DNA from: Escherichia phage T2
Strand: one strand, 5' to 3'
Length of the DNA stretch: 64,000 bases
Sequence record: NC_054931.1
The notes under the pieces are model-generated. The model was not told the DNA's origin and made no database searches. It saw nothing but the letters and a program-made list of their open reading frames with translations. This document shows positions 3,371-36,916 of this stretch, in pieces; the first letter of the stretch is position 1; each line of letters opens with the position of its first letter. A program made the translations under genes and the position numbers.

Positions 3371-3446
3371 CACTTATAATTGGTCGAGGCAGTAGGGATC
3401 GAACCTACGACCCAGGACTTAGAAGGTCCTTGCTCTTCCTTCTGAG
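3371..3446 (-). tRNA. tRNA-Arg (anticodon TCT)
   Basis: Hand-folded cloverleaf; 7-bp acceptor CGAGGCA/TGCCTCG; anticodon loop CTTCTAA; encoded CCA. Confidence 0.8.
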
Positions 3447-3450
3447 CTAT

Positions 3451-3525
3451 GCCTCGTATTTGGCGGACGTGATAGGATTCGAACCTATAACCAATCGCTT
3501 AACAGGCGATCGCTCTGCCATTGAG
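3451..3525 (-). tRNA. tRNA-Asn (anticodon GTT)
   Basis: Hand-folded cloverleaf with all four arms; anticodon loop CTGTTAA; T-loop TTCGAAT; encoded CCA. Confidence 0.7.
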
Positions 3526-3529
3526 CTAC

Positions 3530-3616
3530 ACATCCAAATTGGTGGGGAGTGATGGAGTCGAACCACCCGAGTCGCAATGACAATGAATTTACAGTCCACA
3601 CCGCTACCTCTACGGG
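3530..3616 (-). tRNA. tRNA-Tyr (anticodon GTA), long variable arm
   Basis: 87 nt; acceptor GGGGAGT/ACTCCCC; anticodon loop CTGTAAA; overall layout parallels E. coli tRNA-Tyr; encoded CCA. Confidence 0.65.
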
Positions 3617-3626
3617 ATAACTCCCC

Positions 3627-3701
3627 CAAATTAATTTGGTGGCCCTGGGTGGAATTGAACCACCATCTGGCGATTATGAGTCGCTTGCTTGAACCTTCCA
3701 G
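3627..3701 (-). tRNA. tRNA with CAT anticodon (elongator Met or lysidine-type Ile)
   Basis: Cloverleaf with acceptor GGCCCTG/CAGGGCC; anticodon loop CTCATAA; encoded CCA. Confidence 0.7.
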
Positions 3702-3719
3702 CTACAGGGCCAAATTTTC

Positions 3720-4124
3720 TTATTTTATGTAATATTTATTTAAAAACTTTCTAGCTTGAGTATGGCTAACATTTATAGCGTTTGCATAATTTTTAATAAA
3801 ACCTCGTTCATCCATATTAAAATTTTCTAATATTTTTAATCGTCTAGTTATCTCATCTTTGCTTAAGGTACTTGCATTATTTTTAGAAATTTTTTCTAAG
3901 GACTGTGCCGAGTGTTTTCGACCATTAAAATTAAAATTTTTAGATTTTGGAGGAAATCTATCATTTAGTCTCGCATCTTTTGTATTTTGATTATTAGTTG
4001 CGCAATATATGTTATTTAATGAATATGGTCCTTTATCACCGAAACGGCACATGCAGTATTCATGACCCTTTCTTCCACGCTTATCATATTTTCCCGTTGA
4101 TTTCCACCAATAGCCATTCATCAA
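3720..4124 (-). CDS. putative free-standing HNH-type endonuclease-like protein with C-terminal HTH-like tail
   Basis: 134-aa ORF in the gap between the two tRNA subclusters; N-terminal His/Cys/Asn-rich segment (GHEYCMCRFG...NNIYCATNNQN) resembles an HNH-type fold; C-terminal NYANAINVSHTQARKFL resembles a helix-turn-helix. Confidence 0.4.
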   Translation of the reverse strand: MMNGYWWKSTGKYDKRGRKGHEYCMCRFGDKGPYSLNNIYCATNNQNTKDARLNDRFPPKSKNFNFNGRKHSAQSLEKISKNNASTLSKDEITRRLKILENFNMDERGFIKNYANAINVSHTQARKFLNKYYIK

Positions 4125-4245
4125 AAGTTAAATTCCATTCAATGTTTCTACGTATAGCAGAATTCCGCTGAGAAATATTTTGCATAATCTTCTTTCATCA
4201 CAAATTTCTCTACTTATTCAATACACCGAGCTAAATCAGCAAAAC

Positions 4246-4335
4246 TGGCGGAGGCGATAGGATTTGAACCTATGAGTCGCCGGAGCGACTGCCGGTTTTC
4301 AAGACCGGTGCATTAAACCACTCTGCCACGCCTCC
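4246..4335 (-). tRNA. tRNA-Ser (anticodon TGA), long variable arm
   Basis: Sequence matches recalled T4 tRNA-Ser; anticodon loop CTTGAAA; directly abuts tRNA-Pro (Pro-Ser dimeric precursor as in T4). Confidence 0.85.
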
Positions 4336-4337
4336 AG

Positions 4338-4411
4338 TCTCCATACAAGGATTTGAACCTTGGACCTCCTGATCCCAAATCAGGCGCTCTACCAAACTGA
4401 GCTACACGGAG
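4338..4411 (-). tRNA. tRNA-Pro (anticodon TGG)
   Basis: Cloverleaf; anticodon loop TTTGGGA; CCA not encoded. Confidence 0.8.
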
Positions 4412-4421
4412 TAAATTAAAT

Positions 4422-4495
<74 letters not shown>

Positions 4496-4500
4496 AAATT

Positions 4501-4587
4501 TGGTGCGAGAAGTGGGACTCGAACCCACAAGGAAATCATTCCGCAGCATTTTAAGTGCTGTGCCTTTACCAATTTGACCATTCTCGC
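4501..4587 (-). tRNA. tRNA-Leu (anticodon TAA), long variable arm
   Basis: Matches recalled T4 tRNA-Leu (GCGAGAATGGTCAAATTGGTAAAGGCACAGCACTTAAAATGCTGCGG...); abuts tRNA-Gln. Confidence 0.9.
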
Positions 4588-4588
4588 G

Positions 4589-4661
4589 CTGGGAATAAAG
4601 GACTCGAACCTTTGCATCTAGCAGTCAAAGTTCTATGCCTTACCAACTTGGCTAATTCCCA
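4589..4661 (-). tRNA. tRNA-Gln (anticodon TTG)
   Basis: Cloverleaf; anticodon loop CTTTGAC; CCA not encoded; first gene of subcluster I. Confidence 0.8.
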
Positions 4662-5555: not shown

Positions 5556-5738
5556 TTAACCTTTAGAAATTTTATCCATAACGATAGCGATTAAACCAAT
5601 TAAAAATGCTACTACAAGTGAAAACACATTTTCTGCTGTAGTCAATAATCCGCATATAAATCCAACAAACATTGAAAAACTAAAAGCGGAAGCAGAAATT
5701 GCAATAGCAACATTTCGAATTAATTCACAACGTTTCAT
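5556..5738 (-). CDS. hypothetical small membrane protein, 60 aa (two hydrophobic helices)
   Basis: Track ORF; AIAISASAFSFSMFVGFICGLL and VFSLVVAFLIGLIAIV; first gene after an early promoter; GAGGAGAATAAAATG context. Confidence 0.5.
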   Translation of the reverse strand: MKRCELIRNVAIAISASAFSFSMFVGFICGLLTTAENVFSLVVAFLIGLIAIVMDKISKG

Positions 5739-5757
5739 TTTATTCTCCTCAGTAGTT

Positions 5758-5800
5758 GATAGGGTAATAATATCACCACCCTATCTAAAAGTAAACAGTT
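5758..5800 (-). promoter_or_regulatory. early promoter with overlapping stem-loop (PeSL-like cassette)
   Basis: Minus strand GTTTAC (5791-5796), 18-bp spacer, TATTAT; inverted repeat GATAGGG...CCCTATC (5758-5785) spans the -10 region. Confidence 0.5.
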
Positions 5801-5806
5801 TATAAA

Positions 5807-6115
5807 CTATTTTATTCCGCGTGATGCAATTGTATTCTGCCGTTTAGCACCAGTTTGTTTAAAGTCATGATTGTCGATTTGATCGGTACGAGCAACTCCG
5901 AATGATGATTTGATCTTAGCTTTAGATCCTTTAGTTATAGAAATAAACATCTCGGAAGCCCCTTTCTTAAAGTCCGAGGCGATTACTTCAACGCCGTTCT
6001 TAGCAAGTGACTTCAGAATTGCCTCTGCATACTCATCGTCAAGACTCGTCTGAGTATTAATAACGAATGTCTTTGGCGCAGCCGCTTCATTGATAAATTC
6101 TTTAAATGTTTTCAT
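5807..6115 (-). CDS. internal (head-packaged) protein with capsid targeting sequence
   Basis: 102 aa; N-terminus MKTFKEFINE-A matches T4 CTS consensus MKT(Y/F)(Q/K)EF plus I-x-E prohead protease cleavage motif; located in the IP locus next to 57B. Confidence 0.65.
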   Translation of the reverse strand: MKTFKEFINEAAAPKTFVINTQTSLDDEYAEAILKSLAKNGVEVIASDFKKGASEMFISITKGSKAKIKSSFGVARTDQIDNHDFKQTGAKRQNTIASRGIK

Positions 6116-6129
6116 TTTATTTTCCTAAT

Positions 6130-6165
6130 TAATTTTGATGAGGTAATAGTATCACAACTAAAACC
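6130..6165 (-). promoter_or_regulatory. T4-type early promoter (repeat copy)
   Basis: Minus strand GTTTAC (6159-6164), 18-bp spacer, TACTAT; ~70-bp cassette nearly identical to 6443-6514. Confidence 0.5.
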
Positions 6166-6187
6166 CTATGTAAACAACTTTGTGAAA

Positions 6188-6442
6188 TTATTTTAAATCT
6201 TCTAATCGTTTCTTCATCTTAGAACCGTTCTTAGCGATTTCGCCTGCATCAGAGCATAATGCTAAAAGCGCTTTAACTTTAGTTTGGTCTCCTTTAAAAG
6301 ATGAAGGATCAACAGCAGCAAGTTCTTTAATACGAGAGAAAAGACGCTCAGCTTCAGCTAAAGCCATTCCAAGTTTTACTTCCATACCATGGGAAGATTC
6401 AGTAATAGTAGTTTTTGTAGCAAACTCTTTGAAAGTTTTCAT
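6188..6442 (-). CDS. internal (head-packaged) protein with capsid targeting sequence
   Basis: 84 aa; N-terminus MKTFKEFATKTTITE-S: CTS consensus plus I-T-E cleavage motif; body unrelated to the neighbouring IP gene. Confidence 0.65.
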   Translation of the reverse strand: MKTFKEFATKTTITESSHGMEVKLGMALAEAERLFSRIKELAAVDPSSFKGDQTKVKALLALCSDAGEIAKNGSKMKKRLEDLK

Positions 6443-6463
6443 TTTATTTTCCTAATTAATTTT

Positions 6464-6502
6464 GATGAGATAATAGTATCACTACCTCATCAGTATGTAA
6501 AC
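6464..6502 (-). promoter_or_regulatory. early promoter with overlapping stem-loop (PeSL-like cassette)
   Basis: Minus strand GTTTAC (6497-6502), spacer, TACTAT inside inverted repeat GATGAG...CTCATC (6464-6491). Confidence 0.5.
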
Positions 6503-6514
6503 AACTTTGTGAAA

Positions 6515-7211
<697 letters not shown>

Positions 7212-7212
<1 letters not shown>

Positions 7213-7937
7213 TATAGTACCTTTAGTGTATTTTTAATTTTAGAAAAAAGTTCTTCAATAGAACCATCGTTTGTAATTACTAAATCGCCATCACGAATTG
7301 GCAATCCAGCTTCTGTAATATGTGTATCATTGGATTTTTGACCAGGACGAACTACATGAATTACTGTAGCACCCATCGCCCTAGCCGCATCCATTTCATG
7401 ATCTTGACGGGTATCAGGAACGATATAATAATCATAACCTGAGTTAAATTTATCAAGATAATCTAAAGCAAATAATTTTACCCAGTACATGCGGTCGAAG
7501 TTATTAACAATCAAATCCGTACCTAGGGCTTGCATCAGACGACGGACTGACCATTGATCTTCAATATTATTTATAACGTCAGTAATCTTGTTAAATGCTA
7601 CGAAATTAACTGATTCTTTTCCTTCGTCATCAAAAACAAACACACCTTTAATTGGGCTTTTACCATTAAGATAGCAAAATGCTTGTTCCATAATCGTGAT
7701 TACTTCTAATTTAGTCAGATTTAAATTAGTCTCACGATCATAGTCAATTCCTTCAAACTCTTTACGAGTTAAGCAAGGATAGTCAGTGTTTGCTGCAAAT
7801 ACTCCCCATGCATAAGCCAATGCATCCTTAATAGGACCAGCAAGTTGGTATTTAACTGCAGAATAATTGCTCATGATAAAATCAGCAGTAGTATCTTTTC
7901 CACTACGCTTTACACCACTTAAAAAGATTAGTTTCAT
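7212..7937 (-). CDS. 1: deoxynucleoside monophosphate kinase
   Basis: 241 aa from MKLIFLSGVKRSGKDT (P-loop); same length as T4 gp1; track ORF extends 13 codons upstream. Confidence 0.9.
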
Positions 7938-35013: not shown

Positions 35014-35438
35014 TGCTTCTGATCCCTGAAACTCATGAATTAGTTCTCGAAAGTGTCGAAGCACTTATTACTGAAGCACAGGGTCGCTTTGACGAATTGT
35101 CTTCTGCTTTAAATAAAGACGATATAAATACAATTGTCGAGAATATGCTTGATGATGAAACTGATTTAGCGGTTGCATTAGCTTCTATTAATGAAAATAT
35201 GCCGTTAAATGAATTTATCGTTAAACATGTTTCCGCCCGTGGTGAAATTACTCGCACTAAAGATCGCAAAACCCGCGAACGAAATGCATTTCAAACCACT
35301 GGGCTGTCTAAAGCAAAACGTAGACAAATTGCTCGTAAAGCTACCAAAACGAAGATTGCCAATCCAGCAGGTCAATCTCGTGCTCAGCGTAAGCGTAAAA
35401 AAGCTCTTAAACGCCGTAAAGCATTAGGATTAAGCTAA
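35013..35438 (+). CDS. 68: prohead core protein gp68
   Basis: 141 aa, matches T4 gp68. Confidence 0.9.
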
Positions 35439-36076
35439 TGAATGAACCCCAATTACTAATTGAAACTTGGGGTCAACCTGGCGAAATTATTGATGGCGTG
35501 CCAATGCTTGAATCTCATGATGGAAAAGACTTAGGTTTAAAACCGGGTTTATACATCGAAGGAATATTCATGCAAGCGGAAGTCGTCAATAGAAATAAAC
35601 GTCTTTATCCAAAACGTATATTAGAAAAAGCGGTAAAAGACTATATTAATGAGCAAGTTTTAACTAAACAAGCTCTCGGAGAATTAAATCATCCTCCACG
35701 CGCTAATGTTGACCCGATGCAAGCCGCTATCATTATAGAAGATATGTGGTGGAAAGGAAATGACGTATACGGACGAGCTCGTGTTATTGAAGGTGACCAT
35801 GGTCCTGGAGATAAATTAGCAGCTAATATTCGTGCCGGATGGATTCCAGGAGTTTCTTCTCGTGGATTAGGTTCATTGACTGACACAAATAAAGGTTATC
35901 GTATCGTAAACGAAGGATTCAAATTAACTGTAGGTGTTGATGCAGTATGGGGTCCAAGTGCTCCAGATGCATGGGTAACTCCTAAGGAAATTACCGAATC
36001 ACAGACGGCGGAAGCCGATACAAGTGCCGATGACGCCTATATGGCTCTCGCAGAGGCCATGAAAAAAGCGTTATAA
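35438..36076 (+). CDS. 21: prohead core protease gp21
   Basis: 212 aa, matches T4 gp21. Confidence 0.95.
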   Translation: MNEPQLLIETWGQPGEIIDGVPMLESHDGKDLGLKPGLYIEGIFMQAEVVNRNKRLYPKRILEKAVKDYINEQVLTKQALGELNHPPRANVDPMQAAIIIEDMWWKGNDVYGRARVIEGDHGPGDKLAANIRAGWIPGVSSRGLGSLTDTNKGYRIVNEGFKLTVGVDAVWGPSAPDAWVTPKEITESQTAEADTSADDAYMALAEAMKKAL

Positions 36077-36079
36077 ATA
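36072..36079 (+). promoter_or_regulatory. late promoter TATAAATA (gene 22)
   Basis: Exact consensus overlapping the gene 21 stop. Confidence 0.55.
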
Positions 36080-36106
36080 TTATTATCTAAACAACAGGAC
36101 TACAAA

Positions 36107-36916
36107 ATGCTTAAAGAACAACTGATTGCCGAAGCGCAGAAAATTGATGCTTCCGTTGCTCTTGATAGTATTTTCGAATCAGTTAATATTTCTCCGGAAG
36201 CAAAAGAAACTTTCGGCACTGTATTCGAAGCTACCGTCAAGCAGCACGCCGTTAAATTAGCTGAATCTCATATCGCTAAAATTGCTGAAAAAGCAGAAGA
36301 AGAAGTAGAAAAAAATAAAGAAGAAGCCGAAGAAAAAGCTGAGAAGAAAATCGCTGAGCAAGCTTCTAAATTCATTGACCATCTTGCAAAAGAATGGCTC
36401 GCTGAAAATAAATTAGCAGTTGATAAAGGCATCAAAGCCGAACTGTTTGAATCCATGCTTGGTGGATTAAAAGAGCTCTTTGTTGAACACAACGTTGTTG
36501 TTCCAGAAGAATCAGTTGATATTGTAGCTGAAATGGAAGAAGAGCTGCAAGAACATAAAGAAGAATCAGCTCGTCTGTTCGAAGAACTCAATATGCGCGA
36601 CGCATATATCAATTATGTGCAGCGTGAAGTGGCATTGAGCGAAAGTACTAAAGATCTGACTGAGTCTCAAAAAGAAAAAGTCTCTGCTCTGGTCGAAGGT
36701 ATGGATTATTCAGATGCATTCTCAAGTAAATTGAGTGCCATCGTAGAAATGGTGAAGAAGTCTAATAAAGATGAAAGCACTATTACTGATGGTATAAATA
36801 CTCCTGATACTGAAGCAGCCGGACTGAATTTCGTCACTGAAGCTGTAGAAGATAAAGCTGCACATGGTGCAGAAGATATTGTAAGTGTATATGCGAAAGT
36901 CGCATCTCGTTTCTAA
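36107..36916 (+). CDS. 22: prohead scaffolding core protein gp22
   Basis: 269 aa, matches T4 gp22. Confidence 0.95.
   Translation: MLKEQLIAEAQKIDASVALDSIFESVNISPEAKETFGTVFEATVKQHAVKLAESHIAKIAEKAEEEVEKNKEEAEEKAEKKIAEQASKFIDHLAKEWLAENKLAVDKGIKAELFESMLGGLKELFVEHNVVVPEESVDIVAEMEEELQEHKEESARLFEELNMRDAYINYVQREVALSESTKDLTESQKEKVSALVEGMDYSDAFSSKLSAIVEMVKKSNKDESTITDGINTPDTEAAGLNFVTEAVEDKAAHGAEDIVSVYAKVASRF

Follow-up and report, generated by a model that had tools for sequence, protein, structure and literature searches.

What do the two small genes encode that phage T2 carries between 57B and trna.4, and what might their products do? The question is put here to a 64,000-nt stretch of Escherichia phage T2 (sequence record NC_054931.1, hereafter the window), in which two minus-strand open reading frames (ORFs) of 102 and 84 aa lie side by side at this place. 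Judged by their sequence, the two ORFs are ip7 and ip5 of phage T2, members of the internal-protein (IP) class of the T-even phages. The 1.5-kb segment around both genes shows 100% DNA identity to T2 records MH751506, AP018813, PV958097 and others, and the annotation of MH751506 assigns ip7 to the 102-aa ORF and ip5 to the 84-aa ORF (Table 1), placing both between 57B and trna.4, with genes 1 and 57A upstream of the array and the tRNA cluster downstream. Both carry the label 'internal head protein' in newer T2 annotations as well as in PHROGs (Ip7, phrog_2667, 5e-41; Ip5, phrog_3499, 1.8e-47), and both are 98-99% identical to Ip5 and Ip7 of RB32 and T6. The RB32 record describes Ip5 as 'similar to RB15 T6 T2 RB70 Ip5 ... 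replaces ipI', and Ip7 and Ip9 as 'flanked by 43 bp direct repeat'. Indeed, the T4 slot between 57B and trna.4 is occupied by ipI, as a preliminary description of the T2 sequence had stated. The ip5 and ip7 genes, the conserved leader and the promoter cassettes of about 70 bp were already known, and that description, whose checkable details all proved correct, is an accurate rediscovery of them; added here are the exact recombination breakpoints, a chimeric ip7 cassette, the presence of the Ip5 and Ip7 families in the other IP locus, and predicted folds. Taken as a whole, the explanation that we favour, at a probability of roughly 0.6, is that Ip5 and Ip7 are T-even internal proteins that are packaged, processed and injected, each most likely blocking one host nuclease.

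The assignment to the class is carried by the N-termini. Both products begin with MKTFKEF, and in both an I-x-E motif follows, INE at residues 8-10 of Ip7 (MKTFKEFINE/AAAPK, the slash marking the predicted cleavage) and ITE at residues 13-15 of Ip5 (MKTFKEFATKTTITE/SSHG, with the layout MKTFKEF-ATKTT-ITE/S), giving predicted propeptides of 10 aa (MKTFKEFINE) and 15 aa (MKTFKEFATKTTITE), respectively. The preliminary description had noted both the shared start and the motif, and had taken the leaders for the consensus of the capsid targeting sequence (CTS); they fit the published rules, according to which IP propeptides comprise 10-19 residues, with residues 4 and 7 serving in targeting and residues 8 and 10 in processing, and the gp21 protease cuts after L/I-x-E (PMC9026906, review). 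Both proteins carry the CTS pattern MKT(F/Y)xEF with F4 and F7, identical to residues 1-7 of T4 IPI, and among the ORFs of the 64-kb window a start of the type MK[TS][FYW]x[ED][FL] occurs in ip5 and ip7 only. The predicted mature proteins are small and basic (Ip7, 92 aa, 9.9 kDa, pI 9.65; Ip5, 69 aa, 7.4 kDa, pI 9.2), with computed net charges of +3 to +5, and the mature T4 proteins IPI*, IPII* and IPIII* have pI values of 9.0-9.65. The same phage encodes both components that the published CTS pathway requires, the gp21 prohead protease (35438-36076, Peptidase_S77, 1.5e-111) and the gp22 scaffolding core protein (36107-36916, T4_CASP, 3.9e-89), and gp20 portal and gp23 are also encoded in the window.

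Comparison with the T4 proteins shows how the two leaders are built. The leader of T4 IPI, an inhibitor of the type IV restriction enzyme GmrS/GmrD of E. coli CT596, has the same MKTFKEF start (MKTFKEFTSTTTPVSTITE/ATL...); it is 19 residues long, rich in Thr and ends in ITE, and the Ip5 leader is a shortened version of it. T4 IPII and IPIII start with MKTYQEFIAE/A, the same layout as the 10-aa Ip7 leader MKTFKEFINE/A, so that the latter combines an IPI-type start with the 10-residue layout of the IPII/III type. Within each family, across genera, the position of the [IL]xE motif is kept (ITE, LNE or LSE in Ip5; INE, IAE or ITE in Ip7), and leader subtypes swap (MKTFKEF, MKTYQEF, MKTYKEF and MKTYSEFL), with the aromatic residues at positions 4 and 7 retained. 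For example, Ip7 has the leader MKTFKEFINE in T2 and MKTYQEFITE in VR20, and Ip5 has MKTFKEFATKTTITE in T2 and MKTYNEFLTVTTLNE in VR20, the bodies being conserved in both cases. The start of the coding sequence is shared by ip5 and ip7, in line with the preliminary description, 18 of the 21 leader-coding nt being identical; all three differences are synonymous, which argues that the leader peptide is under selection, and not the DNA alone. As a separate observation, the product of a fourth cassette gene in this locus of VEc74 (L006 989-1213(-)) starts with MKTSKEFIVE/A, with Ser and not Phe or Tyr at position 4, where the residue is reportedly critical to capsid targeting.

Beyond the leader, the two proteins are unrelated in sequence. 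BLASTP of Ip5 against Ip7 aligned residues 1-7 alone, and BLASTP of either protein against T4 IPI aligned the leader alone; the bodies are therefore unrelated to each other and unlike T4 IPI, as had been proposed, and they are no alleles of ipI, ipII or ipIII, a possibility raised in the preliminary description. The mature sequences of Ip5 and Ip7, small and basic as those of T4 IPI, show no detectable similarity to the latter; they are likewise unrelated to those of IPII and IPIII, with which Ip5 and Ip7 share the order of CTS and L/I-x-E and the flanking early-promoter/inverted-repeat cassettes. Scans of Ip5 and Ip7 against Pfam, NCBIfam and PADLOC gave no match above threshold, and a PDB sequence search with Ip5 gave no match. 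In the same search Ip7 gave a weak match to a DARPin (ankyrin-repeat) protein, with an E value of 0.022 summed over four sub-threshold stretches, which was rejected because the AlphaFold2 (AF2) model of Ip7 has a beta-strand at the position of the ankyrin loop. This model contains a ferredoxin-like beta-alpha-beta-beta-alpha core (residues 14-72) with a predicted local distance difference test score (pLDDT) of about 80-86, followed by a disordered basic C-terminal tail (residues 82-102), the mean pLDDT being 67.5. Ip5 was modelled as a three-helix bundle (pLDDT 76). Compared by its published description, T4 IPI* has two beta-sheets, with helices on their N- and C-terminal sides (PMC3012670), unlike the all-helical model of Ip5 and the ferredoxin-like model of Ip7. 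Neither sequence nor fold homology to the GmrSD inhibitors IPI*, IPII* and IPIII* was found for Ip5 or Ip7.

How, then, did such unrelated bodies come to share a leader and a locus? Both genes stand in a direct repeat of 109 nt (6095-6203 and 6422-6530), of which 97 nt (89%) are identical. Its core is formed by the intergenic spacers upstream of ip7 and ip5, which the preliminary description had recognised as near-identical early-promoter cassettes of about 70 bp; each is exactly 72 bp long, with identity at 64 positions (Table 1). Both spacers contain GTTTACA, a 17-nt spacer and a TG-extended TACTAT, the layout of a T4 early promoter, and all eight mismatches between them fall in the arms of an inverted repeat around the -10 box. 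At its other end the repeat reaches the last codons of the upstream ORFs, with 57B ending in ...DDLK* and Ip5 in ...EDLK* and GATTTAAAATAA common to both (6188-6199 and 6515-6526(-)), so that, on the sequence, the C-terminal codons of 57B and ip5 appear to lie within the recombining unit.

The two cassettes differ in their make-up. The ip5 cassette is near-identical to the one upstream of T4 ipI, which stands in the same slot as T2 ip5, directly downstream of 57B. In the ip7 cassette, the left half is of the type found in the T4 trna.4 and RB32 ip9 cassettes (...CATAGGGTTTTAG...), and the right half is of the ipI type (...TACCTCATCAAAATTAATTAGGAAAATAAA). Its inverted repeat is lost because the left and right arms come from different cassette types. 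Calculated fold energies agree with this: the intact cassettes give -5.4 to -8.1 kcal/mol (z -0.9 to -2.0), corresponding to a weak hairpin around the -10 box, and the ip7 cassette gives -2.1 kcal/mol (z +1.2), the hairpin being gone. A third and more diverged cassette precedes trna.4, which by its sequence is a cassette gene too, its cassette marking the downstream recombination boundary of the IP array.

Alignment with related phages located the breakpoints, and those relative to T4, T6 and RB32 fall inside cassettes. Between T2 and T4, identity amounts to 97.8% over the stretch that runs from 57B across the first cassette and ends at 6408, 35 nt into the coding sequence; beyond this point the two are unrelated until 5776, a position within the -10 region of the trna.4 cassette, where identity resumes. 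T2 and T6 have 57B, ip5 and the next cassette in common, after which T6 encodes a different IP of 77 aa in place of ip7. RB32 and VEc74 both have the order ip5-ip9-ip7, of which T2 lacks precisely the 334-bp ip9 unit, and the crossover zone between T2 and RB32 (6080-6158) is the stretch common to the ip9 and ip7 cassettes. The ip7 cassette of T2 thus has the appearance of a scar left by crossing-over within the loop, which would agree with T2 having lost the ip9 that RB32 and VEc74 carry. Recombination within the conserved sequence of -10 box and loop would be expected to produce this combined pattern of mismatches, hairpin loss and crossovers. The repeated units of promoter, ribosome-binding site (RBS) and leader would accordingly serve as portable homology by which IP genes are inserted, deleted and swapped through ordinary phage recombination, and the arrangements of T2, T4, T6 and RB32 differ by exactly such cassette events.

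The conserved leader is reportedly 11 residues long, and the flank of about 70 bp is said to hold an early promoter with an overlapping inverted repeat. As quoted in later papers (PMC2839356, PMC12373910), Repoila et al. (1994) described hypervariable IP loci with a conserved leader and flanking promoter/inverted-repeat cassettes; the cassette genes ip4, ip5, ip6, ip7, ip9 and ip10 of T2, T6, RB15, RB32, RB70 and K3 treated there are, as far as that work is quoted, the same object as the one analysed here, with no difference. More than 30 IP variants are known, and their cassettes, which combine T4 early promoters with weak AT-rich stem-loops, may drive IP shuffling (Arbiol et al. 2010, PMC2839356). 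Similar units are the promoter-early stem-loop (PeSL) cassettes of RB49/phi1-type phages, which also consist of repeats of promoter, stem-loop and RBS; both kinds lie beside non-essential genes, which can be shuffled as modules by recombination at these units, and PeSL crossovers were reported in the loop or the -10 region (PMC2839356), the same sites that we infer for the T2 cassettes. The two are described as analogues and not homologues; the IP cassettes have T4 early promoters and weaker, AT-rich stems (PMC2839356).

Both families extend well beyond T2. A tblastn search with Ip7 matched 282 phage records, at identities from 100% down to about 47%, in phages of Escherichia, Klebsiella, Enterobacter, Salmonella, Citrobacter and Shigella. 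The search with Ip5 matched 495 records, about 267 of them at 80% identity or more and 228 being paralogues at about 47%; together, relatives of Ip5 and Ip7 were found in Klebsiella, Enterobacter, Citrobacter, Yersinia and Salmonella phages. T4 IPI was matched in 292 records, and Ip5 (about 267 records at >=80% identity) is as common as IPI among Tequatrovirus genomes. In Mosigvirus (PhAPEC2), Gaprivervirus (VR20) and a Klebsiella phage, relatives of Ip5 and Ip7 lie in the other IP locus (e, denV, vs.8), which in T4 holds ipII and ipIII. The array of T2 has the setting of the class, a hypervariable IP locus (57B-trna.4 or e-denV-vs.8) with early-promoter/inverted-repeat cassettes. An exhaustive profile search with the Ip7 family among 1.84 billion representative proteins returned three clusters, all from phages. 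A 664-aa protein that emerged from the Ip7 profile search with seven stretches was rejected as a summed chance match; it consists of a tandem repeat of about 70 aa, each copy of which aligned weakly with Ip7 residues 48-71. The IP set of T2 comprises ip4, ip5 and ip7, the first lying in the other IP locus, outside the window.

With identity and mobility in place, the remaining question is function. Among the GmrSD type IV restriction enzymes, T4 Ip1 inhibits GmrSD-CT596, Ip2 inhibits GmrSD-ECOR21 and Ip3 inhibits GmrSD-ECOR17, without cross-protection (PMC12373910); from related phages at least 10 IPs have been reported, identified through their N-terminal signal (Silas et al. 2025, PMC12373910). 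IPIII without its CTS, expressed from a plasmid in the host, still rescues infection and therefore acts in the cytoplasm (PMC9391042). The anti-defence role put forward in the preliminary description is the field's own hypothesis (PMC12373910, PMC3012670, PMC9391042). In keeping with that description, our literature search, whose results for ip5 and ip7 were dominated by work on inositol phosphates, yielded no publication in which either protein is given a target.

Combining these data, we propose that ip5 and ip7 would each be transcribed from their own T4-type early promoter in the 72-bp cassette, whose motifs are in place and from which we infer its activity, and possibly also, later on, from a late promoter farther upstream. 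Gene 1, which precedes 57A-57B-ip5-ip7, contains a late-promoter-like TATAAATA at 7568-7575(-), and a search for terminator-like sites between 7400 and 4600 gave none, so that late read-through into ip5 and ip7, at the time of prohead assembly, is possible on the sequence. By homology to T4 IPIII and IPI, the MKTFKEF leader would act as a CTS that binds the gp22 scaffolding core, by which the precursor is built into the prohead. There gp21 would cut after INE (residue 10 of Ip7) and ITE (residue 15 of Ip5), which would presumably set free the small basic products, of 9.9 and 7.4 kDa, within the head and its DNA, and the mature proteins would be ejected into the host along with the DNA. Each would then most likely bind and block one host 'first-response' nuclease that attacks glucosyl-hydroxymethylcytosine DNA, as T4 Ip1-Ip3 do. 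The steps of this scheme are not equally firm. By analogy with the T4 proteins, Ip5 and Ip7 are very probably CTS-targeted, processed and injected internal proteins; for a role as inhibitors of a host nuclease or defence system, the odds are somewhat better than even. The counter-defence gene beside ip5, 57B, which is of the Acb1 family, speaks for such a role.

Several observations weigh against this explanation. T2 and T6, which lack Ip2 and Ip3, are restricted by GmrSD-ECOR21 and GmrSD-ECOR17 (PMC12373910), so the IPs of T2 do not cover these two systems. Expression of ip4-10 in tests with several GmrSD variants gave no inhibition that could be reproduced, and an apparent effect of ip7 on CLS_011 failed on repeat (PMC12373910, Supplementary Fig. 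9). The AF2 models of Ip5 and Ip7 were built from shallow family alignments of 10-11 sequences and reach moderate pLDDT values only, and the predicted folds are generic, resembling no known inhibitor and giving no informative structural match. Our literature search found no direct evidence for Ip5 or Ip7 in T2 virions or for their cleavage. Finally, the Ip5 family conserves two more [LI]xE motifs, LAE at residues 28-30 and IKE at residues 38-40, in predicted helix 1 (6323-6361(-)); access of gp21 to these sites could yield a mature form shorter than the predicted one.

Other accounts of the same data have to be set beside it. Packaged proteins of this kind might have a mainly physical role, in charge neutralisation, core or head assembly, or as an aid to DNA ejection. 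Their basic character (pI 9.2-9.65, net charge +3 to +5) and the disordered basic tail of Ip7 would suit such a role, as would the negative GmrSD screens of ip4-10 and the T4 precedent, with about 360 copies of each IP per head and with IPIII mutants assembling heads at about half the normal rate and giving a burst of about 40% of normal (PMC9026906). We consider it improbable nevertheless: the IP genes of T4 are dispensable on laboratory hosts (PMC9026906), all three T4 IPs are specific nuclease inhibitors, and IP bodies that are unrelated in sequence and fold and exchanged as cassettes between very close phages fit host-specific arms-race genes and not a generic counter-ion. A leader without meaning for packaging is a further possibility, in which one or both ORFs would encode early cytoplasmic proteins, poorly packaged, with the leader-like N-terminus kept by the cassette only. 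The DNA shared between cassettes does include the first 21-35 coding nt, and early promoters drive expression whereas proheads assemble late; yet the three leader-codon differences are synonymous, the leader subtype changes within a family with aromatics 4 and 7 and the distance to [IL]xE kept, 10 residues are sufficient for the packaging of IPIII (PMC9026906), and the late-promoter-like TATAAATA is followed by no terminator-like site before the two genes. This account therefore seems to us very improbable.

Injected effectors with a target other than GmrSD present a different case, since packaging and injection would be as proposed above and the target would be another early defence or a host process, the packaged Alt ADP-ribosyltransferase being an example. 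None of ip4-10 reproducibly inhibited the GmrSD variants tested, Ip5 and Ip7 have dissimilar folds without a counterpart among known inhibitors, the neighbouring Acb1 is directed at another kind of defence altogether, the cyclic-oligonucleotide-based antiphage signalling system (CBASS), and relatives occur in phages of Klebsiella, Enterobacter, Citrobacter, Yersinia and Salmonella. The negative screen is a weak argument, however, because it covered about eight active systems of a very diverse family (PMC12373910); all three IPs with known targets act on GmrSD enzymes, and no positive evidence points to any other target. We regard this account as doubtful and retain the inhibition of one host nuclease by each injected protein as the preferred explanation. 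A wider suggestion, which we offer tentatively, is that Ip5 and/or Ip7 neutralise a non-GmrSD first-response defence, or block a GmrSD subtype in a structurally new way. If this holds, the injected arsenal of the T-even phages extends beyond its sole known target family, and the target of Ip5 would be a widespread barrier, since Ip5 is as common as IPI in Tequatrovirus. Injected proteins act before phage gene expression, so that against defences directed at the entering DNA the phage has no other means; after the three GmrSD inhibitors of T4, the remaining IP families, including Ip5 and Ip7 of T2, are the obvious next candidates, and their targets would help to explain the host range of therapeutic T4-like phages. 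The question itself was not opened here: ip5 and ip7 were already named, the anti-defence hypothesis is standard in the field, and the first published screen was negative.

Table 1. Position and character of the ip5/ip7 array, its cassettes and flanking genes, and of the head genes for prohead protease and scaffold, in the T2 window.
Feature	Coordinates	Strand	Description
ip5	6188..6442	-	84-aa internal-protein precursor; MH751506 annotation, phrog_3499; leader alignable with the 19-aa T4 IPI leader
ip7	5807..6115	-	102-aa internal-protein precursor
ip5 cassette	6443..6514	-	72 bp; early promoter GTTTACA, 17 nt, TGATACTAT; inverted repeat TGATGAGGTA/TATCTCATCA around the -10 box; RBS AGGAAAA
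ip7 cassette	6116..6187	-	72 bp; promoter and RBS as in the ip5 cassette; chimeric, inverted repeat lost
trna.4 cassette	5739..5806	-	third and more diverged cassette; GTTTACT, 17 nt, TGATATTAT; intact inverted repeat GATAGGGT/ACCCTATC
57B	6515..6970	-	Acb1 family, conserved upstream flank; last codons (DLK*) inside the repeat; Pfam PF23474, 2.6e-60
trna.4	5556..5738	-	60-aa predicted membrane protein, conserved downstream flank; phrog_1692
gp21 prohead protease and gp22 scaffolding core protein	35438..36916	+	Pfam Peptidase_S77 and T4_CASP

The surroundings of the array gave some further observations. Acb1, the family of the neighbouring 57B, is an anti-CBASS nuclease family, and the label 'RNA ligase' persists for this gene in some GenBank records. 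The second IP locus of T2 (59500-67100 of MH751506, outside the window) holds ip4 alone, encoding 157 aa, beside e; it is without denV, ipII and ipIII, and its vs.8 is split into two fragments. On the other side of trna.4, the tRNA cluster of T2 (3381-4661(-)) contains nine tRNAs and is a further locally variable region adjoining the IP locus: T2 has tRNAs for Arg, Asn, Tyr and Met together with a 134-aa ORF (3720-4124, no Pfam match) where T4 has segB, tRNA-Ile and tRNA-Thr.

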